A stretch of 64,000 bases of DNA from Minisyncoccota bacterium (GCA_031291955.1 JARLIA010000005.1:9214-73213); one strand, 5' to 3'. Positions 8,350 through 53,936 are shown, counted from the stretch's first letter. Made by a program: numbers and translations. Notes: generated by a model not told the origin, from the sequence alone.

Positions 8350-9030
8350 TTACCTTGAGATCAATCCTTTTTCCATGGCGAACGCAGTCAGTGACGAAAC
8401 GCTATGGAGATTGAGCTTTTTCATCAGGTTGCTTCGATGTTTTTCAACGGTTTTGGTAGAGAGGCAAAGGTAACTAGCGATATCCTTATTTTTGTAACCT
8501 TCGACAACCATCTTAAAAATTTCACGCTCACGCTGGGTGAGTGTATCCCAGCTGGTGCTGGAACTGGAACTGAGACTTCTTCTCCCCTCCAGATATCCCT
8601 CAATGACTTTCTCACTGATCGAGGGACTGAGATAGGATTTGCCTTCAAGGATGCGCTGAATTGCTTTTTTTAGTTCCTCTTCGTCGATATCTTTTGTGGC
8701 GTACCCATCCGCTCCGCATTTCAGAGCGGTCAGAATGTGCTCTTCGGTTTTGTGGACCGTTAGCACGAGTATTTTGATGGCTGGTTGCCGCTTCTTTATT
8801 TCTGGAATGGCTCCCGTGCCGTTCATGCGAGGCATAGAAAGATCAAGAAGCATCATGTCTGGCTTCATAATTTCGGCCAACCTGATGGCTTCCAGACCGT
8901 CTCCGGCTTCTCCAACTACTTTCCAGCCATCTTGTCCATTGATGAAGTCGCGCAGAAGTTCCCTTAGAATATTATGATCTTCTACTACAACAAATTTAAC
9001 CTTGTTATTCTCCAGTTGTTTCTCATTCAT
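8350..9030 (-). CDS. response regulator, NarL/FixJ family (REC + LuxR-type HTH)
   Basis: REC domain with the phospho-acceptor context MLLDLSMP, and a C-terminal HTH LTQREREIFKMVVEGYKNKDIASYLCLSTKTVEKHRSNLMKKL. There is no histidine kinase in the window. Confidence 0.9.
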   Translation of the reverse strand: MNEKQLENNKVKFVVVEDHNILRELLRDFINGQDGWKVVGEAGDGLEAIRLAEIMKPDMMLLDLSMPRMNGTGAIPEIKKRQPAIKILVLTVHKTEEHILTALKCGADGYATKDIDEEELKKAIQRILEGKSYLSPSISEKVIEGYLEGRRSLSSSSSTSWDTLTQREREIFKMVVEGYKNKDIASYLCLSTKTVEKHRSNLMKKLNLHSVSSLTAFAMEKGLISR

Positions 9031-9161
9031 ACCCCCACCCCTTTCCTGGTGATTTGACCCACTCTGTTGGCCAAAATGGCAAAAAAATATCCCACACCAA
9101 CCTTGTTTGATTCGCCGTGTTAAAGAGCATGTTCTGTGTATAATAGGATAAACTAAATAAA

Positions 9162-9228
9162 TGTCAAATGTTACAACAAAAAAAGGTTGATTAAGGCCTT
9201 AAAATTAACTTTGCTCCGCGGACTGGAA
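9162..9228. repeat. copy A of a 62-bp imperfect direct repeat (about 80% identical to 23642-23703) that ends in a tRNA-Asn 3'-end-like 12-mer
   Basis: tgtcaaatgttacaacaaaaaaaggttgattaaggccttaaaattaactttgctccgcgga aligns with tgtcaaatataatcaacaaaaaaaggcttattaaagccttaaagttgtgttgctccgcgga. Similarity stops exactly where copy B runs into the tRNA body. Confidence 0.55.
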
Positions 9229-9302
9229 GAAGTTTAAACCTGCTTGTGAAATTCCCAAGGAATTGCGCAATGGGGAATATTGAATTCAATGGTCTTATTT
9301 TT

Positions 9303-12300
9303 TTATTTCTCCTCTTTCACAAAAGTGACAAACAACACCGGCACCAGAAAGAGGGTGAGGAAAGACGAAAGAAGCAGGCCGAAGATGATGGCGGATCCAA
9401 GCGCGCGCCAGAGTTCATTGGAAAGAGTGATTGGGATGATGCCAAAGATAGTGCAGATGGAAGTGATGAAGATGGCCTCCAAGCGGGACTTGCCGGCGTC
9501 GACGACCGAATCGACGAAAGGAATTTCGCTTTTCAAGTTGAGATTTATCTTGTCGATAAGAATGATGGCGTTTTTGACCACGATTCCGAAAAGCGCCAGA
9601 ATCCCGATCAGCCCCGGAAAGCTCAGGGAGATGCCGAAAATCGCCATGCCGATGAATGTTCCGATGAGCGCCAGTGGCAGAGTCACCAGAACGATGGCGG
9701 CTTTTTTGAACGAGTTGAATTGAACGACCATTGTGGAGACGATCAAAAGCGCGGCGATCAGCATGGCTTGCAAGATGGATTGCACCGACTGGGTGTTCTG
9801 TTCGTTCTGTCCGCCGTAGGTTATTTCATATCCGCTCGGGAGGTGATAATTTTTGGCCAGCTTTTTTTGGAACTCGGCCAGCACTTGGTTGGCATTGGTC
9901 GTGCCGGAAACGTCCGCCGTCAGCATGACAGTGCGTTTCTGATCAAGGCGCGTAATTGATTCTACCGAAGGATTGAGTTCAATTTTGGCCACATCTTTAA
10001 TGAAGACGGGTTGGTTGGCGGTATTCAGAATTTCCAGGTTCTGGATCGCGTCCAGCGTCGGAATCTTGTTTTTTTCAAATTTGGCTACCACGTCAATGGT
10101 TTTGTTGCCGAGGATGACCGTGGAAATTTTAGTTCCGGAGATGGCCGTGCGGAGAGTGTTGCCCACGAGAGACGCATTCAGATTATAAAAAGCCATCTTG
10201 ACCGGATCGAGCGCGAAAGTATATTCAGCTGGCGCGTCTTTCAAAGAAATGTCGCTGTTGACGGTTCCCGGAATCGAATCAAGGAACGGTTTCAAGTCGG
10301 TGGCGATTTTGTCGAGAGTTGAGAGATCGTCTCCGGCAATCTGAGCTTGGAAAGCCGCGCCGGACGGCGGACCGCCACTAGGAGCTGAAACATTGATGGT
10401 CGCTCCTTGGATGTTGGCGAGATCGGCGCGGATCTCGTCGGCTAGCGTGTAAGACGGGATGCGTTTGGCGGTCGTGGGTGTCAGCTGAAGGTTGATCGAA
10501 GCGGTGTTGGAAGTGTCTTGAGAAACGCCGGTGTCCGAACCGTTGTTGCCAGGATTTCCGACCAAGGTTGAAAAGCTGGCGATTTCTTTATATTTCAAAA
10601 GTCGCGCTTCGACTTTTTGCGTGATGAGATTAGTCTCGTCCAAAGTCAGACCGACCGGCGCGCGGAGGCTGATGGAAAGCGTGTCCTCGTTCGAGGCTGG
10701 AAAAAATTCCGTTTTGAGAATTCCGGCAACCGGCAAGGAAACAGCCAAGAGAAAAATAATCAGGACGGCGGAGATGAAAAATATCCGGCGTTTTTTCGTT
10801 CTTAGGATTTTCCGCAAATATTTTTCATATACCGGAAGCGCCCGGTCGAAATGGATGATGCCGTGGATCAGGCGGCTGCCGAAACTAGCCGCCGCGTGGT
10901 TACCTTGGGTGCGCAGTTTCTGCTTTATGAGTTCGTCGTCTTTCCATTCTCTGTCGGCCAAAATCCTGTTTTCCTCAAGTTTTCTTTGGCCGATTCCGAA
11001 ATACCAGGCCATCATCCAGAGAATTATTATGAAAGTGAGGCCCGCCGCCGCGTAGCCGTAAACCGAATGGGTTGTGACGCCAAACAGGCCGATTCCCAAA
11101 AGAATGGCGGCGATGATCAGGAAGAATTTTTTGGTCAGCCGGATACGTTCCAGGACGGCCGCCAAGGGGTGGTTAATTGCAAGCGCGATAAAAAGCGAAG
11201 CGGCTAGAGTCACGGAAACGGTGATGGGGATGGAGCGGATGAACTGCCCAATGATTCCGGTGGACATGAGAAGCGGCAAAAACGCCCAAATGGTGGCCAA
11301 GGTCGTGGTGGTGAGCACGACCTTGAAATCGTTGAGCACCAAAAGGACCGCTTCTTCCGGCGTGAATTTTCCGGTCTTCATATATTGCTTAGTGGCCGAG
11401 ACGACCACAATCGCATCATCGACCAAAAGGCCGAGGGCCAAAAGCAAAGAAAAAATTGAAAGGAAGTTGAGAGATGTGCCGGTCGCGAGCATGACGCCGA
11501 AAGTGGCAAAAAACACCAATGGGATGGCCAGTCCCGCCACAAACGCTTCTTTCAGTCCAACGATGAGAAGGAGAACACCCACCACCAGCACCAGCGTGAT
11601 GAAAAAATCCCGCGTCAATTCGGAAAAACTCTGGTTGATCTGATCGGCCTGATTAAGGGTCGTGGCGGTGCTGATCCCCGGCGGAAGGGTGGCCAATTGG
11701 CTGGTGACAGAATTTTGGGCTGCGTCGATCGTATCCAAAATGGAACTGCCGGTGCGTTTCACAACTTGGATCGTCACTGAATTTTGTGGCGAACTGCCAT
11801 TTTTAGAGAAGCGCGACAGAACCGTTTTTTCCACGGCGGTTTCCTGGACGTCGGCGATATCTTTCAAATAAACGATTGCCCCGTTGCTTTCGTGAAGGAC
11901 GGGAATGTTTCCAAGGGCGGTTGCGGAATATACGCGGGCGTCGGCGCGGACCGGATAGTTGAATTGCCGGCCTTCGAAATTCCCGCCGGGAATGGCGTGG
12001 TTGGTGGCTGTGACGATCTGATTGGCTTGGTCGGCCGTGATGCCATATTGCGCCAATTTGTCGGGATCGTAAGAGATATCAAATTCATACTGATCGCCGC
12101 CGGAAACATCTACTTGCCTTACGCCGGGAATTTTTTCCAATTCGCTCTGGATATTTTCGGCGTAAGTCCGGAGCGTGAATCCGTCGTACGGACCGGTCAG
12201 CTCGAAAGTGACAACCGGCGTGTTGTCGAGCGAAATTTGGATGACTTGCGGATCATTGGCGTCCGTCGGGATGTCGTTTCGAATTGTGGACAATTGGTCG

Positions 12301-12761
12301 CGCAGCCGCCGAGTGGCGTCGTCAACATTCTGGTCGGAATCGAATTCGACCGTGACTGACGAAAAAGAATTGCTGGAGGTCGAGGTGATTTTGTTTATCC
12401 CGGCTACGCCGGAAATGTCCGTTTCGATTTTTTTTGTGACCAGTTCTTCGACGTCGGCGGGTGAAGCGCCTGGATAAACATCGGTGATGACGGCCACCGG
12501 AATGGTTACTTCCGGATTGGATTCGCGCGGCAGCTTCAGGAAAGAATAAATTCCCCAACCGGAAAGCAGGATGATCATCAAAATCACGACGCGAAAATTG
12601 GTGATGAAAAAATTGAACCAAGTTTTTCGAAGTTCCGGGCGGAATTTGAGTTTGGCAAGATAAGCCAAGTCGCTTGACCTGGAGGCGTCTTTTTTCTGGC
12701 CGGCTTCCTGGTCGTTTTTTGAGTCTTGATTTTTCATTGAGAAGATATTAGTTCTGCGCAA
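9303..12761 (-). CDS. RND-family efflux transporter permease (AcrB/HAE-like)
   Basis: 1152 aa, 12-TM architecture with two large periplasmic loops and conserved AcrB-family segments. Confidence 0.9.
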   Translation of the reverse strand: MRRTNIFSMKNQDSKNDQEAGQKKDASRSSDLAYLAKLKFRPELRKTWFNFFITNFRVVILMIILLSGWGIYSFLKLPRESNPEVTIPVAVITDVYPGASPADVEELVTKKIETDISGVAGINKITSTSSNSFSSVTVEFDSDQNVDDATRRLRDQLSTIRNDIPTDANDPQVIQISLDNTPVVTFELTGPYDGFTLRTYAENIQSELEKIPGVRQVDVSGGDQYEFDISYDPDKLAQYGITADQANQIVTATNHAIPGGNFEGRQFNYPVRADARVYSATALGNIPVLHESNGAIVYLKDIADVQETAVEKTVLSRFSKNGSSPQNSVTIQVVKRTGSSILDTIDAAQNSVTSQLATLPPGISTATTLNQADQINQSFSELTRDFFITLVLVVGVLLLIVGLKEAFVAGLAIPLVFFATFGVMLATGTSLNFLSIFSLLLALGLLVDDAIVVVSATKQYMKTGKFTPEEAVLLVLNDFKVVLTTTTLATIWAFLPLLMSTGIIGQFIRSIPITVSVTLAASLFIALAINHPLAAVLERIRLTKKFFLIIAAILLGIGLFGVTTHSVYGYAAAGLTFIIILWMMAWYFGIGQRKLEENRILADREWKDDELIKQKLRTQGNHAAASFGSRLIHGIIHFDRALPVYEKYLRKILRTKKRRIFFISAVLIIFLLAVSLPVAGILKTEFFPASNEDTLSISLRAPVGLTLDETNLITQKVEARLLKYKEIASFSTLVGNPGNNGSDTGVSQDTSNTASINLQLTPTTAKRIPSYTLADEIRADLANIQGATINVSAPSGGPPSGAAFQAQIAGDDLSTLDKIATDLKPFLDSIPGTVNSDISLKDAPAEYTFALDPVKMAFYNLNASLVGNTLRTAISGTKISTVILGNKTIDVVAKFEKNKIPTLDAIQNLEILNTANQPVFIKDVAKIELNPSVESITRLDQKRTVMLTADVSGTTNANQVLAEFQKKLAKNYHLPSGYEITYGGQNEQNTQSVQSILQAMLIAALLIVSTMVVQFNSFKKAAIVLVTLPLALIGTFIGMAIFGISLSFPGLIGILALFGIVVKNAIILIDKINLNLKSEIPFVDSVVDAGKSRLEAIFITSICTIFGIIPITLSNELWRALGSAIIFGLLLSSFLTLFLVPVLFVTFVKEEK

Positions 12762-13896
12762 TGTTCACCGGATCGCCGTCTTGGACAAGTCTGCTGCCGT
12801 TTAGGATAATTTTAGCGTTCGACGGAATGTCCGCTTTTATTTCGGCGGCTTCTCCTTCGACCGAAACAATAGCCGCGTCTATTTTTTTGGCTTTCCCGTC
12901 GCTGTCAATGAAAAGATAGCTGTTGTTTTGACCAACGGTTATGGCGGAAAGAGGCAAAAGAAAATCGCCGCTCACGCTCGGGTGTCGGGTTGTTTCGAGC
13001 GTGACTGTGGCCAGCGTGCCGGGGGCGAGCAATGGACCGACCGGGATTTGGCTTTGGGGGTAGGCTTCAAGGAGGAATCTTTTGGTGGCCGGATCGGCGA
13101 CGGGGGAGATGTTTTTGACCGAAGCAGTGATGTTTTGACCGCCATCGCTGACCACAGACACAATTTGGCCTTGGGGAAATTCCGCCAGGTGATCCGGGTC
13201 GACGAAAAATTGCAGTTTGACGTTTTTGGTCTGGCTGATCGTGGCGAGAGTTTGCCCGACATTCACCGAATCTCCGACTGAAACGGATTTTCCAATGATG
13301 AATCCGGCAATGGGGCTCGTGATGATGTGATCATCGAGTGTGCTTTTCAGGCTGACTCGCAAACCGCTGAGCTTGAGATTGTCGATATCGATCTGCTTTT
13401 GAGCGGCGTCTACCTGGGCTTTTGAAACTGTTTTGGCGAGCGTCGAGTTGTTCTGCTCTTGGTCGTAAGCTTTCTTGAGATCCTTATAATTTTTTTTGTC
13501 CAGGCTGAGTTGCTCGGCGGCTTGTTCTTTGGAAAACTGGGTCTCTTGGACTTGGCTGGACTGGAAATCCTCGTAGCCTTGGCCAAGCGTGTTTCCCGTG
13601 TCGTCTATCCGCGCCAAAAGAGAACCGGCTGAGACCTGATCGCCGAGACTAAACGGCACCTCGCTCGCGTTGCCGGCGGCTTTGGCGGTCACGGTTATTT
13701 CCTGATCGGAGGCGACTGTGGCCGGGTAGGTGAGAGTTTCCTTGAAATCATGGCTGTTGGCGGCTGTTTGAAAGGTGATGTCCAGTGGCGCCCGAGATTG
13801 GGATTGTGTCTCAGTCGGCGCTTTTTTGGAGAAGCGGTAGACAAGGAAAAAAATGAGAATGAGTCCGACAGCTGAAGCGATTATTTTCTTTTTCAT
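12748..13896 (-). CDS. RND efflux periplasmic adaptor (membrane fusion protein, HlyD-like)
   Basis: 382 aa. N-terminal anchor, coiled-coil hairpin, lipoyl and beta-barrel regions. Its stop overlaps the RND gene start. Confidence 0.85.
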   Translation of the reverse strand: MKKKIIASAVGLILIFFLVYRFSKKAPTETQSQSRAPLDITFQTAANSHDFKETLTYPATVASDQEITVTAKAAGNASEVPFSLGDQVSAGSLLARIDDTGNTLGQGYEDFQSSQVQETQFSKEQAAEQLSLDKKNYKDLKKAYDQEQNNSTLAKTVSKAQVDAAQKQIDIDNLKLSGLRVSLKSTLDDHIITSPIAGFIIGKSVSVGDSVNVGQTLATISQTKNVKLQFFVDPDHLAEFPQGQIVSVVSDGGQNITASVKNISPVADPATKRFLLEAYPQSQIPVGPLLAPGTLATVTLETTRHPSVSGDFLLPLSAITVGQNNSYLFIDSDGKAKKIDAAIVSVEGEAAEIKADIPSNAKIILNGSRLVQDGDPVNIAQN

Positions 13897-14026
13897 AACT
13901 GTTTTTGATAATTTTTTTATGATTCAACATAGGGAAGTCTATCAATTATATGGGCATCTTGTCAAAGAAAAAAAGCCATTGGGTTGAGTGAGTTGGCAGT
14001 AATAATAACCGGTAGTTACGATCTTA

Positions 14027-15823
14027 TCAGCTTTGCCTTTCTTCGTGCAAAAGCATGTTTATTGCATGAGACATGGAACCGGCGTGAGTGACTTCACCCG
14101 CGTTAATAAAGAAAATGTCGTCGGCGTTTTCGATGGTGTTGAGCCGGTGCGCGATGATGACTTTAGTTGTTTTTTTCGGCAAGTTGCTAATTATCTCTTC
14201 CAGCAACTGTTCCGTGACGGTGTCGATGTTGGCCGTGGCTTCATCTAAAATCAGAATGTCGGGACTCCGCAATACTGCCCGGATAAAGGCGATCAATTGT
14301 TTTTGTCCGAGACTGATAGCGTCTCCGCTTGAAACTACCTTGGTATCCAGGCCTTCGGAAAATCGCGCGAGCAGTTTTGTCAGATTGGCTTTTTCCAGCA
14401 TGGTGGTCAGCTCGGCGTTTGTATAATTATTGTAATTCCCGTTTCCATACAAGATATTTTCCCGGACCGTGCCGTTGAACAGGAATGGTTCTTGCAGGAT
14501 GAAGCCGATCTTTTTTGCCCTCTCGGCTGACTCGTAAAAACGAATGTCTTTTCCTTCTAGATAGATCGTGCCTAGAGTCGGATCGTACAGGCGCGCCATC
14601 AAAGAGGCTGTGGTGGTTTTTCCTCCGCCGGTCGGTCCAACCAGTGCATAGGTTCGGCCTTTTTGCAGAGAAAAGTTGATATTTTTCAAAACATCTTTTC
14701 CTGGAGTGTACTGGAAAGAGACGTCTTTGAATTCCAAAACAGTTCCCGAGGTGGCCGGCGTTCCAGCTGTCGCTTTCTTTTCGGACATCGTTTTTAGGTC
14801 CGACTCAAGGTCGAGAACTTCCGAGATGCGGTCCAGCCCGGCCAGGGCCAGCTGGAGAGAAGACCACACGGAAGCGAGCTGGCGAAGCGGGTTGTAAAAA
14901 TTATTGACGTAGAGCAAAAAACCGATAAGCAGTCCGACCGTGAACTGGCCAAGTGTTATGAGATAGATTCCATAGGCTAGAACAGTCAGCTGAGCCAGGG
15001 ACGAAGCCAGCACATAGATAGGATTAAAGATGTTGCTGGCCACGCCGGCCGCCACCGAGGCGGAATAATTTATCTCGTTGGACTCTTTAAATTTATTCCG
15101 GAAATAATCCAGGCGATTGAAGGCTACAATCACTTTGAAATTATTGATACTTTCCTGGATTTCCGCGCTCATGCCGCCCAAAGACCGGAGGCTTCTAAGG
15201 CTGGTGCGCTTGACCCAGGGAGAGAGAAGTTGGGTGGCGAGAAGGGCGATAGCCGCGGGTAAAAGCGCGACTAGACCGAGTCGAAAATTGATAAATATAA
15301 TGAAAATGCCCGTGCTGATGATAAGGATGATGTTGCTGACAAATTGCATCAGCGCCTGGGAGAAAAACTGGTTGAGCTTGTCGGTGTCGTTATTTATGCG
15401 CGAGATGAGATCGCCGGCTTTATTGGCATTGAAAAAAGACACTGGCAACTCTTGGAGTTTGCCAAATATTTTGTTGCGCAGATTGAAAAGCAATCGCCGG
15501 CCCATTCCTCCCATATTCAGAATCTGTATATAGCTGGAAACGAGGCCCGCGATAAAAATAATGGCCAGGAGGACTGAAAATAACAAGACCCCGTGGAAAT
15601 CTTTTCCCATGATGTAGACGTCTACGATATGGGCGATGATGATAGGCACGACCAATGAAACGGCGGAGTTGACAAGGATGGCCGTAAGGGCGATTGCCAC
15701 AGACCTTTTTTCTTCCGCCATAAGAGGCACCAGCCGGCGCCAGGCGGTAGTCAGGACGCTTTTTTCTTTTTCTTTCGCAAGGTCTGTTTTGGCAAGAGAA
15801 TAATCTGTCATATTATTTTTCAT
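14027..15823 (-). CDS. ABC exporter, fused permease-ATPase (MsbA-like half transporter)
   Basis: Six TM helices, then Walker A GPTGGGKTT, the signature LSGGQKQ, and Walker B ILILDEATANID. Confidence 0.9.
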   Translation of the reverse strand: MKNNMTDYSLAKTDLAKEKEKSVLTTAWRRLVPLMAEEKRSVAIALTAILVNSAVSLVVPIIIAHIVDVYIMGKDFHGVLLFSVLLAIIFIAGLVSSYIQILNMGGMGRRLLFNLRNKIFGKLQELPVSFFNANKAGDLISRINNDTDKLNQFFSQALMQFVSNIILIISTGIFIIFINFRLGLVALLPAAIALLATQLLSPWVKRTSLRSLRSLGGMSAEIQESINNFKVIVAFNRLDYFRNKFKESNEINYSASVAAGVASNIFNPIYVLASSLAQLTVLAYGIYLITLGQFTVGLLIGFLLYVNNFYNPLRQLASVWSSLQLALAGLDRISEVLDLESDLKTMSEKKATAGTPATSGTVLEFKDVSFQYTPGKDVLKNINFSLQKGRTYALVGPTGGGKTTTASLMARLYDPTLGTIYLEGKDIRFYESAERAKKIGFILQEPFLFNGTVRENILYGNGNYNNYTNAELTTMLEKANLTKLLARFSEGLDTKVVSSGDAISLGQKQLIAFIRAVLRSPDILILDEATANIDTVTEQLLEEIISNLPKKTTKVIIAHRLNTIENADDIFFINAGEVTHAGSMSHAINMLLHEERQS

Positions 15824-17582
15824 CTTTTAATTCGTATTGGTTGGTGCTTTGCTGCGAGCGGAAGATCTGGACGTATTCCGGAGACGTGCGGAGCAGTTCT
15901 TCGTGCGTGCCTTTGGCCAGCAGTTCTCCTTCCATGAGCAGGATGATCTGGTTGTAATGCTCGATAGACGAAATTTTTTGGGTGACGGATATGAGTGTGA
16001 GATCCGGATAATTTTGAGCGATATTTCCGAGGATGTTGCGTTCGGTGGCAGTGTCCACGCGTGCGGTAAAATCGTCCAGGAGGAGTATCTTTGGGTCGAG
16101 TGCCAAGGCGCGGGCCAGCATGATGCGCTGCTTTTGACCGCCGGAAAGACTGGTGCCTCTTTCTGAAACTATGGTGTCCAATTTTTGCGGCAAGGCGGCA
16201 ACGTAATCTTTCAATTGGGCGGTCTCGATCGCTTTTTCAATATGCCGGTCTTTGGCGGTGTTGCTGAAGGCAATGTTTTCCCGGAGGCTCATATTGAACA
16301 TGACGCTGTCTTGAAATACGAAACCGACCTGGCTGTGCAGACTTTCCTTGTCATATTTATCAATATCTTTTCCGTCAAAATATATCTTGCCCGTTGTCGG
16401 CGCCAGAAGGCCCGTGAGCAGGTAGAGCAGTTGAGTTTTTCCGGCGGCCGTCGGGCCGATGATGGCCGTCTTGCTGCCGGCCGGCACGGAAAAGGAAATG
16501 TCTTTGAGTGCCATTTTTTCTCCGAAATTAACCGAGACGCTCTTCACTTCGATATCTCCCTGGAGCGTCGCTTTGATCCCCTGGATTTTTTTTGGCACGG
16601 GCGCGTTGAGGACCAGTCGGATCCGTCCGTATGAAGCTTCGGCCTGGGCAATTAGGTTGCTTATAAATCCGAGAATGATTATCGGGAAAATAAGGATAGC
16701 CAGGTAGCTGTTGAAGGCCGTAAAATTTCCCAGTGACATATTATCCTGGATGACAAAATGCCCTCCCAGAAGAACTATCATCAGTGTAGCCAGATTGGTG
16801 AAAAAAGTGATGACGGGAATAAGACTTGAAAACAAGGCCAGGATTTCAAAGCTGATGTCTTTGGCTTGGGTGTTGGCGGCGAGAAACTTTTCGTTTTCAT
16901 GTCGCTGGGAATTAAGCAGGCGGATAAGCGCGCTGCCCAGGATGCTCTCGCTGATAACTTTGTTGAGCCAATCTATGGCTTCCTGTGATTTCACGAAAAG
17001 CTTTCGGACTTTTTTCAACACGAAAAAGAAGGTTAGCCCGATAACGGGCGTGATTGAAAGCACGGCCAGTCCCAGTTTCCAATCGGTGATGAGGAGCAGC
17101 ACTGAAACGCCGACAATCAAGAAAGCGGACGAAACGAGGGATGAAACGGCCGTCGAGACGAAGGTTTTGACCGCGTCCACGTCGGAAGTAAGATTGGTCA
17201 GAATTTTGGCTGGCGTGGCGGTTTCGATATATGCGTAAGGCTGTACTGAAATTTTTGCCGCGATATTATTGCGCATGTCCCGGGCCACTTTTTCGGAGGC
17301 GTAGACCTGGACGATATTTTGCAAATAGGTGAAGAGAAAGATGAGGAGGGCGATAACCGAAAATTCGACAACGAGATGGGAAATGAGAAAGCTGCCTTTG
17401 GTATAAGTGTCGATGGCGTTGGCGATGATTTTGGGAACCGCAATACTCAGCCCGTTGGCAATGACGGTAAGTGCCGCCAAAAGGACAATGATGCCCATGT
17501 ATTTTCTGAGCAATCCAAAAAGGCTCGGAGAATGGGAAGTGACAGTCTTGCCGCGGTCGTTAAGTTTTTTTTGTTCCTTCAT
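15813..17582 (-). CDS. ABC exporter, fused permease-ATPase (heterodimer partner)
   Basis: Walker A GPTAAGKTQ, signature LSGGQKQRIMLARAL, Walker B LLLDDFTARVD. It overlaps the neighbouring ABC gene and the marR gene. Confidence 0.9.
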   Translation of the reverse strand: MKEQKKLNDRGKTVTSHSPSLFGLLRKYMGIIVLLAALTVIANGLSIAVPKIIANAIDTYTKGSFLISHLVVEFSVIALLIFLFTYLQNIVQVYASEKVARDMRNNIAAKISVQPYAYIETATPAKILTNLTSDVDAVKTFVSTAVSSLVSSAFLIVGVSVLLLITDWKLGLAVLSITPVIGLTFFFVLKKVRKLFVKSQEAIDWLNKVISESILGSALIRLLNSQRHENEKFLAANTQAKDISFEILALFSSLIPVITFFTNLATLMIVLLGGHFVIQDNMSLGNFTAFNSYLAILIFPIIILGFISNLIAQAEASYGRIRLVLNAPVPKKIQGIKATLQGDIEVKSVSVNFGEKMALKDISFSVPAGSKTAIIGPTAAGKTQLLYLLTGLLAPTTGKIYFDGKDIDKYDKESLHSQVGFVFQDSVMFNMSLRENIAFSNTAKDRHIEKAIETAQLKDYVAALPQKLDTIVSERGTSLSGGQKQRIMLARALALDPKILLLDDFTARVDTATERNILGNIAQNYPDLTLISVTQKISSIEHYNQIILLMEGELLAKGTHEELLRTSPEYVQIFRSQQSTNQYELKDEK

Positions 17583-18036
17583 AAATTCGTTTATTGTTTT
17601 TTCTCGCTGCCAAGTTTCGGGCTATTTTGTCGAACAATCGGCAGTAGGATTCGAATTCCGTATCAGTCAACGCGTCAAAAACATGTGCCATGATCTCTAC
17701 GCGTTTTTCCCACAGTGTCCCCAGGTGCTTTTTGCTTTTGTCTGAAAGCGAGAGAGCGAGTGCCCGCTTATCATCGCTGTTCGTTTTTCTGACAACGTAT
17801 TTTTTTTGGACCAGGGATTCGACCAGTTGAGTGGCCGCGCTGGAAGTCATGCTAAGGGTCCGGGCGATTTCCTTGACGGTTGCTCCTTCGTTTTTCCGCA
17901 AATACTGAAGCACTAGCCACTCGGAAGCGGTGATATGGGTGCTTTTCAGAGAGGAAGACGTCCTGGCCAGTATCTTGCGTTTCAGAACTTGGATATCCTC
18001 AAGTAGCTTTTCGATCTGTTTTTTGCGCCGTACCAT
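17560..18036 (-). CDS. MarR-family transcriptional regulator
   Basis: 158 aa. Winged HTH with ASEWLVLQYLRKNEGATVKEIARTLSMTSSAATQLVESLVQKKYVVR. It is the first gene of the marR-ABC-ABC operon. Confidence 0.85.
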   Translation of the reverse strand: MVRRKKQIEKLLEDIQVLKRKILARTSSSLKSTHITASEWLVLQYLRKNEGATVKEIARTLSMTSSAATQLVESLVQKKYVVRKTNSDDKRALALSLSDKSKKHLGTLWEKRVEIMAHVFDALTDTEFESYCRLFDKIARNLAARKNNKRIYEGTKKT

Positions 18037-18179
18037 ATCGTTCTTAATTATGTAAGTATCTTAACTAATTACGGGGCGGCTGTCAATGAGGCCATATCCA
18101 ATGGGCAAAGTCCATTGCGGGATAATAAAAAAGGCATATCCGACCTTATCCGCGGGCGTTCGCTTGGCGGGACAGCTTT

Positions 18180-19916
18180 TTATCCGAAGGTGAAGGTGTA
18201 GGCTTGCGTTCCCGGTGTTTGAAACTCAAGCTTGAGAATGTGGCTCTCTGTTTTTCCATGCAGATCAACAATATTATATAATCGGTCAGTATCGACGGTA
18301 ACCGTGCTGTCTTTCACGTCCGCGCCGGCTTCCGCCGGATCAATAATCTTTCCATCGAGGAGCACCCTGACCTTGGCGGCCGCAGAACTATCCGAGTTAA
18401 GAATGATATAGACTTTGCTCGCGATAAAGTTGTAGTTCAGCGTCGCGCCGCTGCCAGCCACGGCATACTCATCGTTTATCGTCCACGTTCCGCCGTAACT
18501 GAAACTGTTCGGGCTAAGATTGTCCGACAGCGAAAATGTCTGTGTTCCGTTGCCCAAGCTCCCGCTCGGGAAGTAGTATTGCATTTTGGCCGAACCGATA
18601 TAAGTTTCCGGGGAAGTATAATTTTGCGGCGTCTGGTCGGGAACGGAAGACAGTGAGGCGGCAACGTTTCTCCCGGACTCCTTAAGCAAAGCTTGGATAG
18701 CCTGCTCCATCTGGTCGTATTCGCCTTCGCCGAAATGGGTCCGCCGGACCGCTCCCTTGGCGTCGATGAGATATTCCGCCGGCCAATATTCGTTATTATA
18801 ATTGTTCCAAGTTTTGTATTCATTATCCTGGGCGACCGGATAATGGATACCGTACATTTTGATTGCGTCCTGGACGTTGTTTGTGTCATGCTCGAATTGA
18901 AATTCCGGCGTGTGGACGCCAATCACCACAAATCCATCGTTTTTGTATTTGTCGTACCAGGCTGTCACGTGCGGCAGCGTGCGGATGCAATTGATGCAGG
19001 AATATGTCCAAAAATCAACCAGAACAACTTTCCCTTTGAGACTGGCGATGGTCGGCGGCGTGGAAGTGTCGAGCCACTTGTCTATTCCGACAAAATCCGG
19101 CGCCGAATAGTCCGCATTGAAAAGGCCGCTCGTTTTTGCTTCCGGCGCGGATTTTTTTCCCTTCAAGAGATCAAGCTGGCGCGTGACTAGTTGGCTGTTT
19201 TCAAAGCCGTTGACGGCTTTTCCGAGCGCCGGGTATCTATTCAGGAGATCCAGCTGCAGCGTCTGGTCATAGTTGGTGAAAATCGCGATCGCCGCCAGGA
19301 TCATCAGTACGCCGAAAGCCTGTTGGATTTTGGGCGTGTATTTATTCACGCCGCGCGCCCGAGCGACAAACTGCTTGCCGCCATAGGCGAACAGAAACAA
19401 CGGGACGCCGACCCCGGTGATGTAGGCTAGGGTGAGCAGGAGGACGGAAAAAGAAACTTGTCCGGTGGCCGATAGGGCCGCAATCGTTGCCAGGATCGGT
19501 CCCGCGCAAGGGGACCACAATATGCCAAGAGACAGCCCGGTGACAAATCCCGGCCAGAATCCGCTCCCGGTCTCGGCGGGACCGCGTCCGAAAATGTTGG
19601 ACAGCTTTGAAACAAAGATTTCAAATTTTTTTCCCAAAGCGGGAATGATCATGGTGAGCCCGAGAAAGGCGATGATGACAACCGCCAGCGTCCGCAGGGC
19701 GTCCGGATTAAAATGAAAGATACTGACGAGGTAGGAAATGAATAGGGTAAAAACCGTGAAACTCAACATGATGCCGAGCGTAACGCCGAGCGGCCGCTTG
19801 TGGCCAATTCCTCCGGCGATCGAAGAAGAGAGAACGATTGGCAGGACCGGCCAGATGCACGGGGCCAAAATTGTGACAAATCCGGCCAAAAATGCGAATA
19901 GGAGCAATAGAATCAT
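18180..19916 (-). CDS. DipZ-like protein-disulfide reductase (CcdA/DsbD transmembrane domain + thioredoxin-like domain + C-terminal domain)
   Basis: The N-terminal DsbD/CcdA membrane domain has LAPCIWP and SPCAGP cysteines. The central redoxin domain has the motif WTYSCINC. Architecture matches mycobacterial DipZ. Confidence 0.8.
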   Translation of the reverse strand: MILLLLFAFLAGFVTILAPCIWPVLPIVLSSSIAGGIGHKRPLGVTLGIMLSFTVFTLFISYLVSIFHFNPDALRTLAVVIIAFLGLTMIIPALGKKFEIFVSKLSNIFGRGPAETGSGFWPGFVTGLSLGILWSPCAGPILATIAALSATGQVSFSVLLLTLAYITGVGVPLFLFAYGGKQFVARARGVNKYTPKIQQAFGVLMILAAIAIFTNYDQTLQLDLLNRYPALGKAVNGFENSQLVTRQLDLLKGKKSAPEAKTSGLFNADYSAPDFVGIDKWLDTSTPPTIASLKGKVVLVDFWTYSCINCIRTLPHVTAWYDKYKNDGFVVIGVHTPEFQFEHDTNNVQDAIKMYGIHYPVAQDNEYKTWNNYNNEYWPAEYLIDAKGAVRRTHFGEGEYDQMEQAIQALLKESGRNVAASLSSVPDQTPQNYTSPETYIGSAKMQYYFPSGSLGNGTQTFSLSDNLSPNSFSYGGTWTINDEYAVAGSGATLNYNFIASKVYIILNSDSSAAAKVRVLLDGKIIDPAEAGADVKDSTVTVDTDRLYNIVDLHGKTESHILKLEFQTPGTQAYTFTFG

Positions 19917-20158
19917 AGTATTTCTTTGATGAGTTTAGAATTGTTTATGGAAAAATATGGAGCATTGAACGCGAAAAAAAAGATATCTTAATTATTACAA
20001 TTTTAGCATGGAAAATTCCATGTTCCCAATTAGGAATAAAAAACCAAGATTGCTTAAGTCTTGAAAAATTTTTCTCCGCGCTTTGGAGGAAGTCGGAACT
20101 TCTTTTATAAAATCCAACAGCCAAAGCCTGCGGTGAAAACTTCCATTTAGTAGCATTT

Positions 20159-20371
20159 ATGGTCTTTTCTTTAGCTAACAGGGCTTTGGAAATTTTCGAA
20201 AGTTCTGAAGTAAATGAAAAACGACAGCTCTTGAGTTTTCTACTTCAGAACTGTCGCCTTCAGGATAAAAAGCTTTTATTTGAGCTACGTTCGCCCTTTA
20301 ATGACATACTCGAATATGCTCATTATCCTTCTATGCTCCACGAACTGGAAAGAGTTCGAATCTATTTGTAA
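20159..20371 (+). pseudogene. possible C-terminal remnant of a large serine recombinase
   Basis: The 70-aa ORF EKRQLLSFLLQNCRLQDKKLLFELRSPFND resembles the extreme C-terminal tail of large serine recombinases. The reading frame is open upstream but has no start codon and no catalytic domain. Confidence 0.25.
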
Positions 20372-20378
20372 AAATAAG

Positions 20379-21485
20379 TCACTGAATTTTTTCCGCTAAC
20401 TCAGCCTTCGTCAGCGGTCCGACGGTTCCGGTCTGCGGCAAGCCGTTGTTTGCTTGGAACTTTGTGATTGCATCGATAGTTATCTGTCCGTAATTTCCGG
20501 TAATATATTGGGAATCAAGCAATCCCAGTTTGCCGAGAACGGTCTGGATGTTTTTAATGCCTTCCATTGTCTGAGTATTAAAATCATCGGCGGAAAGATT
20601 AAGGGAAACATTGTCCAGATCTATCTGTTTATCGGCTTCATCTTTGCCGGTGTCGGGATTTTGCACCGTAATAGTCCTTATGTGGTCAGTCTGGTCATTA
20701 AGCAATTTAGCTAAGCAAAACTTAGCCACAATCTTTTGGCTGGAATTTTTGGTGACTGAAGCGGCGTCATGACCGCCGATCATCACGTCGGTGTCATTGG
20801 TGAAATGCCGGCCATCAATGATGAGTTTCAATCTTTGGGGACAACTAGCTTTGTTAGCATTGGTGTATTGGTAAGCGGACCAGGAATCGATTTTAGCTTT
20901 TTGATTTACGGAATCCGAGTCTTGATTAGTCGTATTTTCCGTAGAGTTAATATTAGAATTGTCTCCGCCAGTAACAACAATATCCTGAGAATAATTACTT
21001 TCGGTGTCGGCATCTTCGCAGTTGTTTCCATCTGAATCGCAAGTGGCCAGTCCGACATAATATTTTAAAGTATAGGTTCCTGCTTTCTGTCCGACGACTA
21101 CGTCGATATTAAAAGTATCATAATCGCTATTATTACCATAAGCATTGTCAGTTATCCATTTGAACCAAACATATCCAGACGGAGCACTGGCCGGATCCGG
21201 TTGTGAGCTGCCAGATACCATCGTAAAATGTTCTTCAGAATCAGTGATCGATGTCACTGCCCAATCTTCGGGAATGAGCACGGCTAAATAGATTTTGTGA
21301 GTATTGGGGCTATTTTGGTCATCCGCGCCTCCATTGGTATGACCATTGACTGACAGAGTAGTGTGCTCTCCGGGCGCGACCGTGTCGGGTTGCGAAACGC
21401 CGTCAATATAAGCACTACAGCCTGATAGAAAAAGCACGACCAAAGAAATTGCCACTACCTTGATCCAATTCGATATATTCTTCAT
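20379..21485 (-). CDS. lipoprotein with a C-terminal peptidoglycan-binding (PG_binding_1-like) domain
   Basis: Signal peptide with lipobox LSGCSA, a low-complexity N/D/S/T-rich middle, and a C-terminal TKFQANNGLPQTGTVGPLTKAELAE motif. Confidence 0.6.
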   Translation of the reverse strand: MKNISNWIKVVAISLVVLFLSGCSAYIDGVSQPDTVAPGEHTTLSVNGHTNGGADDQNSPNTHKIYLAVLIPEDWAVTSITDSEEHFTMVSGSSQPDPASAPSGYVWFKWITDNAYGNNSDYDTFNIDVVVGQKAGTYTLKYYVGLATCDSDGNNCEDADTESNYSQDIVVTGGDNSNINSTENTTNQDSDSVNQKAKIDSWSAYQYTNANKASCPQRLKLIIDGRHFTNDTDVMIGGHDAASVTKNSSQKIVAKFCLAKLLNDQTDHIRTITVQNPDTGKDEADKQIDLDNVSLNLSADDFNTQTMEGIKNIQTVLGKLGLLDSQYITGNYGQITIDAITKFQANNGLPQTGTVGPLTKAELAEKIQ

Positions 21486-21817
21486 TGAATTTTATTTTTA
21501 TGTTGTTGTTTATGCGGATATTATAGCATAAAGTTCGAATCCTGATCAGGTCATTCCAAAAAGAGCTTAAATAAAGCACGAGAAAATCAAATTATTTTTC
21601 TGGTTCGAACCTCCTGATTCCCGTTATATTAAAGCAAAAATCGCCTCTTGTGAAAGCGATTTTCAATAAGGGCTCCAACTGGTGGATATGTTTAGAACTT
21701 TAATTTATGTTAATATCCTGCAAGAATTGGAATTATACAGTTTCTCAGTATGTGCAAAAACTTTATAAAATAGGGATCGGGTGTATACTAAGGTTAATAA
21801 ATCATAAAAAATCAGAT

Positions 21818-22219
21818 ATGTCACAAAAAAAAGTAACTATTTGCGCTAGCATCGCCTTTTTGGATGATATAAGTATATGGAAAGAAAAATTAAAAAATGA
21901 TGGTTATGATGTTGTTCAATACCCCAAAAAGCTTATCGGTGAATTTCTACCAAGCTACAAAGTAGAATTTACTGAACATTACCAGAAGATGGCCGAATCC
22001 GACATAGTGCTTATTTTGAATATGAAAAAGAAAGGCGTCGATGGCTATATCGGTGCCGCAGTATTCGCGGAAATTGCTTTCGCAATAGGTCTCAATAGAA
22101 CATCCCGCTATGATAAAAAAATAGATGTCTACTGTCTTAATCATTTCCCAAATTCATTGCCACACGCAGAGGAGTTGCAATATTGGGTAGATCTGGGATG
22201 GTTAAAATTTTGGAACTAA
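21818..22219 (+). CDS. nucleoside 2-deoxyribosyltransferase-like protein
   Basis: Start chosen at the internal ATG (MSQKK). The pattern VTICASIAF...SDIVLILNMKKKGVDGYIGAAVFAEIAFAIGLN matches the Nuc_deoxyrib_tr-like Rossmann fold. Confidence 0.4.
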   Translation: MSQKKVTICASIAFLDDISIWKEKLKNDGYDVVQYPKKLIGEFLPSYKVEFTEHYQKMAESDIVLILNMKKKGVDGYIGAAVFAEIAFAIGLNRTSRYDKKIDVYCLNHFPNSLPHAEELQYWVDLGWLKFWN

Positions 22220-22271
22220 CACTCTTATATAAAATGAAAGACCGCTAATATTAAACGGTCTTTTTTTTGAA

Positions 22272-23561
22272 TCACCCCCATTTTTTTAAGATAAATTCAG
22301 CTAATTGCTTGTAAGATTCTTCCAAAACGTGAAAGTCTTTTTTGTCACCCCACCAATGATTTGGGTTGTGATGGATGTGACATTTTTTCCAATCATTGTC
22401 CTTGAGGTGCAGTTTATTTTTCTCTGCTTCATTGTAAACGCGGCTTCCAGGAAGAGGCACGAAACGAAATAAAGACACTCTTTTGATCATGGCCCAAAGA
22501 TCATCCAGAAGTGTGATTGTTTCTTGTGTTGTTTCCATATTTTCACCCGGATAACCGTGCACAATGAAGTTTTTTACTTTGATACCTGCAGAATGGGTCA
22601 TCTTAATCGCGTTATAGATTTGGTTTACGGAAATGCCTTTGCCCATAGCTTTAAGGATTTTTTCACTTCCTGATTCAACGCCAAATTTAATCTCTATGCA
22701 ACCGGCGTCGCGAATGATTTCAAGATCGTCGTAACTCACCGTATCAACCCGTGATAAGATTGACCATTTTAAGTCTAAGTCGCAGATAGACTCGCATATA
22801 TCCCGCACCCGCCTTTTGTTTACTAGAAAATTATCATCAACAACGGCAAATCCTTCTATTCCATAAGTATTCTTCAAATGCTCAAGCTCTTGGCGGATGT
22901 GCCACCCTGGGCGATATTGCATTTGTTTTTGTTGCCCCGCGCAAAAGTTGCATGAATATGGGCATCCTTGGCTGAACATGACATGAGTCATTCGCAGGTT
23001 CGTGCTAGAGAGTCGGTTTGTCATTATGAAATCAGACTCTGGCAATAGGTGCCTTGCGGGGATAATTGGCCAGTAATCGAGGTTTTTCTTTAATGCTCGC
23101 TGCTCAGTAAAGCGGGGATTACCATTTTTCATGTAGCAGATCCCCTTGATATGAGAAAATTGCTTCATCCTCTTCGCGTGTATGAGTTCCAGTATCGTCT
23201 CATCACCGTGGCCAATGTTCACAGCATGAACCTTGAGTTCTTGCAGTGTTTGTATGGGGAAGATATTCGCATGGACACCACCTGCGATTACGAGAGTATC
23301 ATGTGCGTATATGCTATTGAAACGCACATTTTTGATGACATCATAAGTAGCCGAGGATGGTATGCTAAACGCTACAACATCAAAAGTGGTTAAATCTAGG
23401 GTATCTTGATCAGTTCCCACGCTGAAAACTTTTACTTCCATTCCATTCTGAGCGCTTACAATTGTTGCCAGGTATAATACCCCAAACGGTGGAAATTCCT
23501 TTCTATTTTTTCCAAACCGAGCGATATCATATACCTCTGGATATACGATTGCTATTTTCAT
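22272..23561 (-). CDS. B12-binding-domain radical SAM protein
   Basis: N-terminal B12-binding-like domain, then the radical-SAM cluster motif CPYSCNFC (CxxxCxxC) and SAM-binding segments. Confidence 0.85.
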   Translation of the reverse strand: MKIAIVYPEVYDIARFGKNRKEFPPFGVLYLATIVSAQNGMEVKVFSVGTDQDTLDLTTFDVVAFSIPSSATYDVIKNVRFNSIYAHDTLVIAGGVHANIFPIQTLQELKVHAVNIGHGDETILELIHAKRMKQFSHIKGICYMKNGNPRFTEQRALKKNLDYWPIIPARHLLPESDFIMTNRLSSTNLRMTHVMFSQGCPYSCNFCAGQQKQMQYRPGWHIRQELEHLKNTYGIEGFAVVDDNFLVNKRRVRDICESICDLDLKWSILSRVDTVSYDDLEIIRDAGCIEIKFGVESGSEKILKAMGKGISVNQIYNAIKMTHSAGIKVKNFIVHGYPGENMETTQETITLLDDLWAMIKRVSLFRFVPLPGSRVYNEAEKNKLHLKDNDWKKCHIHHNPNHWWGDKKDFHVLEESYKQLAEFILKKWG

Positions 23562-23641
23562 TTTGACACCTCCAAATTGTTAAGTTGCAAATGGTGATAT
23601 AAATTATACCAACAGTGTAGAATAGAGGTAAAAAGATAATT

Positions 23642-23703
23642 TGTCAAATATAATCAACAAAAAAAGGCTTATTAAAGCCTTAAAGTTGTGTTGCTCCGCG
23701 GAG
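23642..23703. repeat. copy B of the 62-bp direct repeat (tRNA-Asn 3' end plus its terminator hairpin)
   Basis: See copy A. It includes the hairpin aaggcttattaaagcctt and a U-run in minus sense, directly downstream of tRNA-Asn. Confidence 0.55.
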
Positions 23704-23765
23704 AGGACTCGAACCTCTAACCAATTGATTAACAGTCAACTGCTCTACCATTGAGCTACCGCGGA
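23694..23765 (-). tRNA. tRNA-Asn (anticodon GUU)
   Basis: Minus-sense sequence TCCGCGG-TA-GCTC-AATGGTA-GAGC-A-GTTGA-CTGTTAA-TCAAT-TGGTT-AGAGG-TTCGAGT-CCTCT-CCGCGGA-G. It folds into a cloverleaf with a 7-bp acceptor stem and a T-loop TTCGAGT. CCA is not encoded. Confidence 0.85.
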
Positions 23766-26956: not shown

Positions 26957-27550
26957 ATGGAAACAAACAATAATCCCGTCAAAAATCTCAACGAGCTGAT
27001 TGAAAAAGTGGACGCCATGAAAAAACAGGACAAGCTGGATTTGTCGTCCGATCAGGATTTGACCATTGCCATCATGAACCTGGTGAGTATCGAAGAGCAT
27101 TTTTTCTTTACCGGCGCGAAACTCGGGAAGCCTGAATATTTCGACCTTCTTCAAGAAGCGCGCAAGATGCGCGGAGATTTGCTTCGAAAAATCGTGAAAG
27201 ATCCCGAAGGAGAAGTCTGGTGCATCTCGAAACACTTGCTGGCAGCTTCCATGCGTCTTATGGAAGTGGGCACCAAACAGCAGGGGATGGGCAAGAAGGA
27301 GGAGGCGCGGGAATTTTTCCAAAAAGCCTATGACCTCTATTCTCTTTTCTGGGGAATAAATATGAAAGTGATTTCCACCGATAACGTAAAAAAAATCGAC
27401 GAAGGGGCCATGAATGTTCATGACAAAGAGCCTAAGCCCGCCCGCAACGCTTCGCAAGCGGGCGCTGGCTCGCGTAGCGATGCGGGCGGGGGCTTTATGG
27501 GAAAATTGGGCGAACTGGTCAGGAAAGCGGTGGATTGCTGTATCGAATAG
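26957..27550 (+). CDS. hypothetical protein carrying an in-frame GC-rich palindromic element
   Basis: 197 aa. No family recognised. The C-terminal segment PARNASQAGAGSRSDAGGG is encoded by the element at 27437-27492. Confidence 0.5.
   Translation: METNNNPVKNLNELIEKVDAMKKQDKLDLSSDQDLTIAIMNLVSIEEHFFFTGAKLGKPEYFDLLQEARKMRGDLLRKIVKDPEGEVWCISKHLLAASMRLMEVGTKQQGMGKKEEAREFFQKAYDLYSLFWGINMKVISTDNVKKIDEGAMNVHDKEPKPARNASQAGAGSRSDAGGGFMGKLGELVRKAVDCCIE
27437..27492. repeat. GC-rich palindromic element, copy 1, lying in-frame inside a CDS
   Basis: The arms cccgcccgcaacgcttcgc and gcgtagcgatgcgggcggg are 17 of 19 complementary. The same arms occur at 47815-47893. Confidence 0.6.
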
Positions 27551-27635
27551 TCATTTTAACACGTTAGCATATTAACATATTAGCATCGAAAATTTTGTTA
27601 AAATGTTAATATGTTAAAATGTTAATATGCCTCGG
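27551..27635. repeat. AT-rich palindromic element built from TTAACAT/ATGTTAA heptads, copy a
   Basis: cattttaacacgttagcatattaacatattagcat...ttgttaaaatgttaatatgttaaaatgttaatatg. The left half is the reverse complement of the right half. Confidence 0.55.
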
Positions 27636-27696
27636 TTTTAATCAATTTTAATTATCTTACGCCCGGTCTGATTGACGTTAAGAAGAAAAAACAAGT

Positions 27697-53496: not shown

Positions 53497-53841
53497 CTAT
53501 TTCACGTTCTCGATGAATTTGGCAAAAACTTGTGGGTTTTCGACGGCCATTTGAGAGAGTACTTTGCGGTCCACCTCAATCTTCTTGTCGGTCATCAGGT
53601 GAACGAGCTGGCTATATTTCATTCCCAGCTCTCTGACGGCGATGTTGAGGCGGGTGATCCAGAGACGCCGGGTGGTTCTTTTTTTGGTCCGGCGGTCGCG
53701 ATAAGCGTAGGTGCCAGCCTTAATTACCGCTTGTTTAGCGGCTCGGTAGGTCTTACTTCTTCTCCAGCGATAACCTTTGGCGTCGGCGAGGAGATTCTTT
53801 CTTCTTTTTGAGGCGGCCAGGCCGCGTTTTACTCTAGTCAT
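53497..53841 (-). CDS. rplT: 50S ribosomal protein L20
   Basis: MTRVKRGLAASKRRKNLLADAKGYRWRRSKTYRAAKQAV.... Confidence 0.95.
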   Translation of the reverse strand: MTRVKRGLAASKRRKNLLADAKGYRWRRSKTYRAAKQAVIKAGTYAYRDRRTKKRTTRRLWITRLNIAVRELGMKYSQLVHLMTDKKIEVDRKVLSQMAVENPQVFAKFIENVK

Positions 53842-53936
53842 TTTAACATTTTAACATTTTAACATATTAACAAAAGAAAATTAGCATTATAGAACGTTAA
53901 CGTTGTTGAAATGCTAATATGTTAATATGTTGAAAT
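53842..53936. repeat. AT-rich TTAACAT/ATGTTAA palindromic element, copy b (between rpmI and rplT)
   Basis: cattttaacattttaacatattaaca...tgctaatatgttaatatgttgaaatg. Its minus-sense end runs straight into the rplT ATG. Confidence 0.55.

Follow-up and report, generated by a model that had tools for sequence, protein, structure and literature searches.

Integration at tRNA genes and the present locus

The 3′ ends of tRNA genes are generally held to be the territory of tyrosine integrases. A different type of enzyme is suggested by a block of 14.5 kb beside a tRNA-Asn gene in 64,000 nucleotides of a Minisyncoccota bacterium (GCA_031291955.1, JARLIA010000005.1:9214-73213). This whole stretch is called the window, and positions are counted from its first nucleotide. 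The block lies between the tRNA gene with its downstream region (copy B) and a second, partial copy of that sequence (copy A). The region from tRNA-Asn to copy A was probably shaped by elements of large serine recombinases (LSRs) that integrated at tRNA gene 3′ ends.

Tyrosine-integrase islands, such as P4-like elements and integrative mobilizable elements, target the tRNA 3′ end, leave the tRNA intact and carry a partial 3′ end at the far boundary; they may also form tandem composite arrays, whose junctions are chimeric (PMC5704250). The window resembles them in these traits. Unlike them, it holds an LSR remnant, its repeat consists of 12-17 nt of tRNA plus 50-75 nt of downstream sequence, and its far junction contains the last codons of a recombinase. 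Serine-recombinase elements are described as usually having very short repeats and disrupting dispensable genes, while the tyrosine type uses tRNA 3′ ends (PMC5704250).

The large serine integrases of phages (A118/LI, Bxb1, phiC31; PMC3783163) share with the present family the domains Resolvase, Recombinase and zinc ribbon, a hybrid attR and a 5-bp motif shift. Unlike in the phages, attB would here be a tRNA 3′ end and attP would lie inside the recombinase open reading frame (ORF) as a tRNA mimic, and the window holds a 70-aa tail only. An attP inside the ORF implies that integration would replace the C-terminal residues of the enzyme.

The Ccr serine recombinases insert SCCmec and other staphylococcal cassette chromosome (SCC) elements at the 3′ end of rlmH/orfX without inactivating the gene, as is proposed here for the tRNA. 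SCC elements have imperfect direct repeats and form tandem composite arrays including recombinase-less pseudo-elements, a likeness to the array in the window. Unlike SCC elements, the present ones would have a tRNA as target and an att site overlapping the recombinase gene, and their hosts are candidate-phyla-radiation bacteria. The integrases of SSV1-type archaeal viruses carry attP within the int gene at a tRNA-like site, and integration alters the ORF, as is proposed for the LSR family. The SSV1-type enzymes are tyrosine recombinases, whose gene is split in two large parts, whereas in the LSR family the exchange would affect no more than the last ~10-25 codons and leave the enzyme at full length.

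Mycobacteriophages with tRNA-dependent lysogeny show a short common core (~10 bp) at the tRNA and a dependence on the fate of the tRNA 3′ end, both resembling the present case (PMC10865867). These phages have tyrosine integrases, do not rebuild the tRNA and carry a replacement tRNA (PMC10865867). Unlike theirs, the tRNA at the present junction is intact. A literature search yielded no description of tRNA-targeting serine recombinases of such a kind, but its coverage was incomplete and an earlier description is possible. If true, an LSR family acting at tRNA ends, leaving the tRNA intact and encoding the att site in the codons of its C-terminus would solve the same problem in a different way.

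Copies of the tRNA-Asn 3′ end

The sites and the recombinase remnant are, in order along the window:

9138-9222 (-): copy A, left arm of B-left type; 12-nt acceptor end TCCGCGGAGCAA, degenerate tRNA-Asn terminator, TTGACA-16-TATTAT promoter into the response-regulator gene
9223-9252 (+): copy A, right arm of P-right type; relic of LSR last codons (..LEEV-stop) with decayed T-loop mimic GTTTAAAC; 22/36 identical to D, core-pattern match
20037-20118 (+): copy C, weaker attR-like scar; hairpin 20045-20063, minus-strand T-run, core CTCCGCG, P-right arm encoding ..LRALEEVGTSFIKS
20127-20371 (+): LSR gene tail, 5′-truncated; ATG-ORF 20159-20371 (70 aa), homology starting near 20127, by profile hidden Markov model (HMM)
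20335-20373 (+): site D, attP-type core in the LSR last codons; acceptor mimic GCTCCACGAA and T-loop mimic GTTCGAAT
23617-23702 (-): copy B; acceptor 3′ strand and discriminator (TCCGCGGAGCA), intrinsic terminator, -35/-10 promoter into the radical SAM gene
23693-23765 (-): tRNA-Asn(GTT), intact; T-arm and acceptor as right arm of the attB-type site; ARAGORN, Rfam RF00005 (74.4 bits)

Copy A (9162-9228) aligns to copy B (23642-23703) with about 80% identity and one indel. Their local alignment score of 77 stands against a best value of 32 among 60 Markov-shuffled windows, and the match is thus far beyond chance. An exact 12-mer TTGCTCCGCGGA is common to A (9211-9222) and B (23691-23702), in the latter comprising the 3′ strand of the acceptor and the discriminator plus two more bases. 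The tRNA 3′-end match of A, 12 nt exact and 15/17 if extended (9211-9227), is followed by 50-75 nt of homologous downstream sequence. Beyond the repeat, a weaker likeness continues through the TTGACA -35 and the -10 boxes to ~9138 and ~23617. A 30-nt degenerate pattern matched A and B only in the window (0 expected). A third TTGCTCCGCGGA copy at 34940 was rejected as a chance match: it lies inside a small ORF and its flanks have no similarity.

In tRNA sense, copy B continues with a 7-bp hairpin (23681-23664; -11.4 kcal/mol, z = -2.2), a T-run, a TTGACA -35 and a -10 box, and then the B12-radical SAM gene. A promoter-like site is located at 23881-23854. The hairpin of copy A is degenerate, with a 4-bp stem, -4.4 kcal/mol and z = +1.5, no better than shuffled sequence. 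The first-pass annotation of this DNA had already described the repeat of ~62 bp at ~80% with one indel, the tRNA-Asn at B and the abrupt end of tRNA similarity in A, and all three agree with the alignments, the shuffle test and the tRNA searches. It had also assigned a hairpin to each copy as a terminator alternative, and a good one is present in B alone.

Copy A has a hybrid structure, with a left arm like that of B (28/48 ungapped; ~80% with one indel). Its right arm matches the right arm of D, the antisense of the LSR last codons, with 22 of 36 positions identical in an ungapped, core-anchored alignment (P about 5e-5). The same alignment against the tRNA arm (B-right) gave 6/36. Because host left arm and element right arm are joined, A is of attR type; B, with B-left joined to B-right, is of attB type. 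Plus-strand translations read ..LLRG/LEEV-stop at A, ..LLRG/EDSNL-stop at B, ..MLHE/LERVRIYL-stop at D and ..FLRA/LEEVGTSFIKS at C. The ending at B (..LLRGEDSNL-stop) is the same as in integrated members of the LSR family. A degenerate core pattern matched A, C and D only, all in the same orientation (0 expected).

A decayed full-length tRNA at A was rejected. The 69 nt between the stop of the RND pump gene and the relic have no residual similarity to the tRNA body and score below the shuffle mean. On the opposite side, by contrast, 80% of the 62 nt are conserved, which marks the boundary as a breakpoint and not a product of gradual decay. These results support copy A as a displaced tRNA-Asn 3′ end with its native downstream module, made by site-specific recombination at the tRNA.

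Recombinase tail, site D and copy C

In the first-pass annotation, the 70-aa ORF was likened to the C-terminal end of an LSR, with no catalytic domain. Profile search and domain architecture bear this out. The ORF is most closely related to 38 short ORFs in which Pfam finds no domain. These served to build a profile, which retrieved 3809 cluster representatives, among them proteins of ~500 aa with Resolvase, Recombinase and Zn_ribbon_recom domains, in which the match falls at the extreme C-terminus (full-length relatives P0044, P0079, P0089 and P0119). In the window, HMM positions 33-109 are matched and ~400 codons upstream are gone. The tail had no matches in phage genomes (tblastn), PHROGs or Pfam and was identified only by large protein searches. 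Viral contigs scanned with the tail alignment and full-length recombinases gave only truncated or uninformative loci, and the terminator motif had no matches in viral contigs.

The T-loop mimic of site D lies 5 bp further out than the T-loop motif in the tRNA. The acceptor mimic (20335-20345; TCGTGGA in tRNA sense) could still pair over all seven positions with TCCGCGG, the 5′ acceptor strand of tRNA-Asn, five of the pairs being Watson-Crick and two G-U. A tRNA rebuilt from the D arm would thus keep a 7-bp stem.

Copy C matches the core pattern at 20073-20100 with 3 mismatches. It aligns to A with a local score of 37 (shuffle maximum 32). Its position coincides with the GC break, and the truncated LSR tail follows at once. 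Copy C is probably a second attR. Within the window, host-type left arms are present in A, C and B, element-type right arms in A, C and D, an element-type left arm in D and the tRNA arm in B. No attL occurs among these four junctions.

The LSR family: fusion to tRNAs and a 5-bp shift

Family tails were counted among the best 150 of the 3809 profile matches, which gave 146 parseable tails and a full-length set of 12 proteins of at least 380 aa. The best 150 are mostly 5′-truncated tails of 90-250 aa. It is the tail that holds the attachment-site arm, and many of the contigs are short. The ending ..L(R/P)G.DSN(L/Q/P)(R)P.., which is the translated antisense of tRNA acceptor and T-loop, was found in 38 of the 146 tails and in 7/12 full-length enzymes. 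An element-type end ..L(R/P)(L/I)(L/V)(D/N)x(V/I/F)RT.. was present in 44/146, and a further 37/146 have a stop few codons after L(R/P).

The fusion is visible at the DNA level in three contigs (L110-L112), where the LSR tail (..AHHSSM/GA-stop) passes straight into an antisense tRNA-His. In L110 (737-1432), and likewise in L111 and L112, a 91-aa LSR tail alone fills the gap between tRNA-Ile and tRNA-His. The stop codon of the L110 tail shares nucleotides with the 3′ end of tRNA-His, which is encoded on the other strand.

A T(C/A)GAAC motif is located at +17 nt from the TGCTCC anchor in real tRNAs (tRNA-Asn at B, tRNA-His of L110). In the five element-type tails carrying the motif (D, A in decayed form, L099, L101 and L103), it is located at +22 nt. 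Rutherford et al. described a zinc-ribbon-domain motif 5 bp further out in attP than in attB, and proposed that it tells serine-integrase sites apart (PMC3783163). The shift from 17 to 22 equals this attB/attP shift, so that the 5-bp rule is visible directly in natural sequence. The T-loop motif of the tRNA may accordingly be the zinc-ribbon contact.

An unrelated Parcubacteria lineage (L098-L100) carries an LSR tail 1.3 kb from tRNA-Asn in the same orientation. Next to the intact tRNA-Asn comes a GIY-YIG gene of 309 bp, and after it a relic (24 nt) of the tRNA's own 3′ end. The terminator and TTGACA box that come next are homologous to those of A and B, and an A-T pair of the stem has become T-A, a compensatory change. 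This arrangement indicates that the module of acceptor, terminator and promoter is the native region downstream of tRNA-Asn in the clade, and that the tRNA end is a recurrent insertion point.

The 102-aa GIY-YIG gene lies exactly between tRNA-Asn and the T-loop/acceptor relic (L099, 9855-10411; likewise L098 and L100). As an insertion at this tRNA, the one in L099 is minimal, and its crossover point is not that of the window. The last ~88 nt of its LSR tail (8906-8993) are repeated 470 nt downstream (9376-9463; 74% identity). The upstream coding part is absent from the second copy, which is therefore a second element-type scar, between two small genes.

Content, composition and relatives of the block

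Apart from the sites above, the block contains the following genes and segments:

9303-19916 (-): outer segment; RND pump, membrane-fusion protein (MFP), two ABC exporters, MarR, DsbD/thioredoxin protein (Pfam)
20379-23561 (both strands): inner segment overall (Pfam); compositionally foreign
20379-21485 (-): PG_binding_1 protein (Pfam)
21707-22219 (+): 170-aa ORF; no significant family match
22272-23561 (-): B12-radical SAM protein (Pfam)

Pfam agreed with most of the cargo list of the first-pass annotation, namely the RND pump and its adaptor, two ABC half-transporters, MarR, DsbD/thioredoxin and B12-radical SAM, but its 'lipoprotein' is the PG_binding_1 protein and its 'NDT-like' gene has no family match. 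No integrase, the tyrosine type included, was found by Pfam in the ten main ORFs of the block; the only recombinase sequence is the serine-recombinase tail 3.3 kb from the tRNA.

The first-pass annotation had proposed to set the composition of the whole block against its flanks, and this comparison divides it. At 20.1-23.6 kb (LSR tail, PG-binding protein, 170-aa ORF and radical SAM), the block is foreign: the GC content at third codon positions (GC3) is 0.35-0.45 and the tetranucleotide correlation drops to 0.66-0.82. Other genes examined are mostly at or above 0.53 in GC3 (0.53-0.66). The segment at 9.3-19.9 kb, with GC3 of 0.53-0.64 and a tetranucleotide correlation of 0.885-0.92, is like most of the window.

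The 170-aa ORF has the lowest GC3 (0.345) and no family match, and its reality as a gene is for these reasons uncertain. It is called as 133 aa in two same-species contigs (L104, 5352-5753; L105, 2272-2673) and as 170 aa in another, with 100% identity at the protein level there.

Homologues of the RND pump are 66-94% identical across Parcubacteria and Moranbacteria. The closest relative found (L115; RND 94% identical) has the order ABC-ABC-MFP-RND-(rhodanese/YceI)-HI0933-CSD-ABCF. It lacks the response regulator, o140, o84 and copy A, and its contig does not extend as far as a tRNA. In more distant relatives, synteny with the window locus is lost. A recombinase-like match after the RND gene of L115, noticed by eye as a shared 12-mer, is due to chance; a six-frame profile scan found no recombinase tail there. 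An exact look-up of DipZ returned no record.

In the window, a response-regulator gene (8350-9030, -) lies downstream of copy A, and its upstream region is the tRNA-Asn-type promoter of that copy. Homologues with 58-75% identity were found in 80 metagenome contigs (L018-L097). Many of these loci have a divergent response-regulator-like gene upstream, which is missing in the window. The 80 loci were also searched for an empty site and showed no tRNA-Asn or other window gene nearby. A further empty-site search by the HI0933-like flavoprotein in the genome collection gave a best relative of 65% identity, with synteny limited to DEAD/CSD and no tRNA.

At least two pieces thus make up the 14.5 kb. 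Of these, the distal one (10.8 kb) is old, native-looking and already present in the ancestor shared with the congener L115, while the tRNA-proximal one (3.3-3.6 kb) is younger and low in GC. Native composition, L115 synteny and equal synonymous divergence (dS) on both sides of boundary A argue that the outer segment is not recent. It is either an ancient insertion predating the L115 split, with the scar overwritten in L115, or native DNA, and it is not recent cargo. A recent transfer of the RND block relative to its flank was rejected on the equal dS. The result warns against taking the efflux genes of the window as recently acquired cargo.

Proposed history

The attachment site of the LSR family would lie within the last codons of the recombinase gene itself, where the opposite strand imitates the tRNA acceptor strand and T-loop. 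Integration would join the recombinase body to the antisense tRNA, forming attL. The original last codons would move to the far end of the element and be joined there to the displaced acceptor end, the terminator and the promoter, forming attR. In the window, A would correspond to attR, C probably to a second attR, D to an attP-type site on the LSR remnant and B to an attB-type site at the live tRNA.

From the sequence we infer that LSR enzymes catalysed the junctions of the window, and the simplest order is the following. An old event would have left A. A recombinase-bearing element would then have lost its interior and most of its gene by one internal deletion, producing C, the truncated tail and D. 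As a result, a recombinase-less low-GC cassette would now be situated between D (attP-type) and B (attB-type). In direct orientation, these two sites would be the exact substrates for excision of the cassette as a circle by an LSR-type enzyme.

For the family as a whole, the evidence tips slightly towards the following proposal. An LSR family, mostly from candidate-phyla-radiation bacteria, would target tRNA 3′ ends by an attP in its own last codons, a tRNA mimic with the T-loop motif 5 bp off. Integration would rewrite the C-terminus (..xRT.. to ..DSN..), scars would pile up beside tRNAs, and segments between scars, e.g. the radical SAM cassette of the window, would be movable as recombinase-less cassettes. 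If true, this would explain the frequent short 'hypothetical' LSR-family ORFs beside tRNAs in small, little-studied genomes and yield a marker by which gene flow in candidate-phyla-radiation bacteria can be mapped. For genome engineering, serine integrases are also of practical interest where their natural targets are short and highly conserved.

Several observations weigh against an origin of the whole region by LSR elements. The tRNA junction B is of attB type and not the attL expected after a simple integration, so that extra events must be assumed. LSRs are not known to re-use attL as a target; tandem accretion would hence need non-canonical reactions, such as those with a recombination directionality factor, or recombination with DNA of relatives. 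No catalytically complete recombinase is present in the window, and its tail is devoid of Resolvase, Recombinase and zinc-ribbon domains by Pfam and the tail profile. Copy C is of marginal significance and the weakest element of the model. The crossover can be placed only within or at the edge of the 12-nt block, and the central dinucleotide was not located. The family-wide claims rest on predicted metagenome proteins, most of them without DNA context. No empty-site allele was found, and all same-species contigs retrieved by exact look-ups of radical SAM and response regulator share the arrangement. The outer segment is native in composition, and in L115 it adjoins the same left-flank genes HI0933-CSD-ABCF. 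The dS values between window and L115 are alike across boundary A (0.48-1.04 inside, 0.47-0.96 outside). If inserted, the outer segment came before the L115 split or from a very close relative.

Alternative explanations

The last of these observations also fit an insertion of the tRNA-proximal 3.6 kb only (C to B), with the genes from RND to DipZ being native downstream of tRNA-Asn and beside HI0933-CSD-ABCF. Copy A would then have arrived with the response regulator in a variable slot after the RND gene, e.g. as a piece of another tRNA-Asn locus on an imprecisely excised element. Beyond the native composition and the equal dS, the RND pump is typical of the clade, L115 has another gene between RND and HI0933-CSD-ABCF without relic or response regulator, and the slot differs in every relative examined. 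The response regulator has a lowish GC3 (0.49), and its 80 homologues stand in other contexts without tRNA. However, a second, unexplained insertion mechanism at a non-tRNA site would be required. Copy C would be the native module downstream of the tRNA, yet it is the copy least like the conserved module of B, A and L099. Moreover, o140 beside HI0933 is ancestral (L004), which would reduce the insert at the slot to ~0.95 kb. This explanation, the main rival, is considered unlikely.

A single classical tRNA island of 14.5 kb, bounded by direct repeats and decayed after loss of its integrase, was the reading of the first-pass annotation. Its geometry fits, with an intact tRNA, a block and a partial 3′ repeat at the far end, and a recombinase remnant is situated inside. 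Recombination at the tRNA 3′ end and a remnant of the responsible enzyme family are retained from this reading; the single accessory island is not, as at least three recombinase-type junctions (A, C and D) are present instead of two ends. Of the repeat, only 12-17 nt belong to the tRNA and 50-75 nt to the sequence after it, and the other arm of A is recombinase-derived. About the cargo, 75% of the block is native in composition and syntenic with the flank in L115. The lost integrase, implicitly of the tyrosine type, is contradicted by the remnant of a serine recombinase and by the Pfam result for the ten main ORFs. A single island is very improbable on these grounds.

Still less credible is an import of the live tRNA-Asn on a low-GC segment (~20.1-24.3 kb), with A as the remains of a redundant original tRNA-Asn. 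Low GC and atypical tetranucleotides do occur on both sides of the tRNA (20-26 kb), and some phages are documented to disrupt a tRNA of the host and to bring a copy of their own (PMC10865867). But GC3 is clearly low only in the genes at 20.1-23.6 kb and in one doubtful 95-aa ORF, no relative has a tRNA after RND, and no tRNA body is left at A despite the 80% conservation of the adjacent 62 nt. A plain deletion also leaves the recombinase-type right arm of A unexplained.

Two related intrinsic terminators without any recombination, for which the hairpin-like element and minus-strand T-run in both copies and the position of A ~80 nt after the RND stop would speak, can practically be dismissed, as A holds the exact 12-nt tRNA acceptor end and a hairpin that folds no better than shuffled sequence, no further member exists in the 64 kb, the A/B similarity extends into the promoter and the other arm of A matches a recombinase end.

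Other features of the window

Large ORFs contain coding tandem repeats at 42668-44016 and 48829-49655, with periods of ~330 nt and 114-117 nt and 62-85% identity. The tetranucleotide correlation is also low in these regions. A transfer-messenger RNA (tmRNA) gene with a long predicted tag ANFITKAKTAIASAFAPSYAYALA was found at 54712-55104 (-) by ARAGORN and Rfam. Its 3′ end is tRNA-like, and neither the tail profile nor the core pattern revealed a recombinase-type scar beside the gene. Four clusters of repeats with an 8-bp period (TTAACATATTAACATTTTAACA and its complement) are located at 27549-27645, 53836-53945, 56844-56945 and 58355-58406. They form inverted arrays around short spacers, the arms of different clusters being 90-95% complementary, and might be iterons or arrays of regulator-binding sites.

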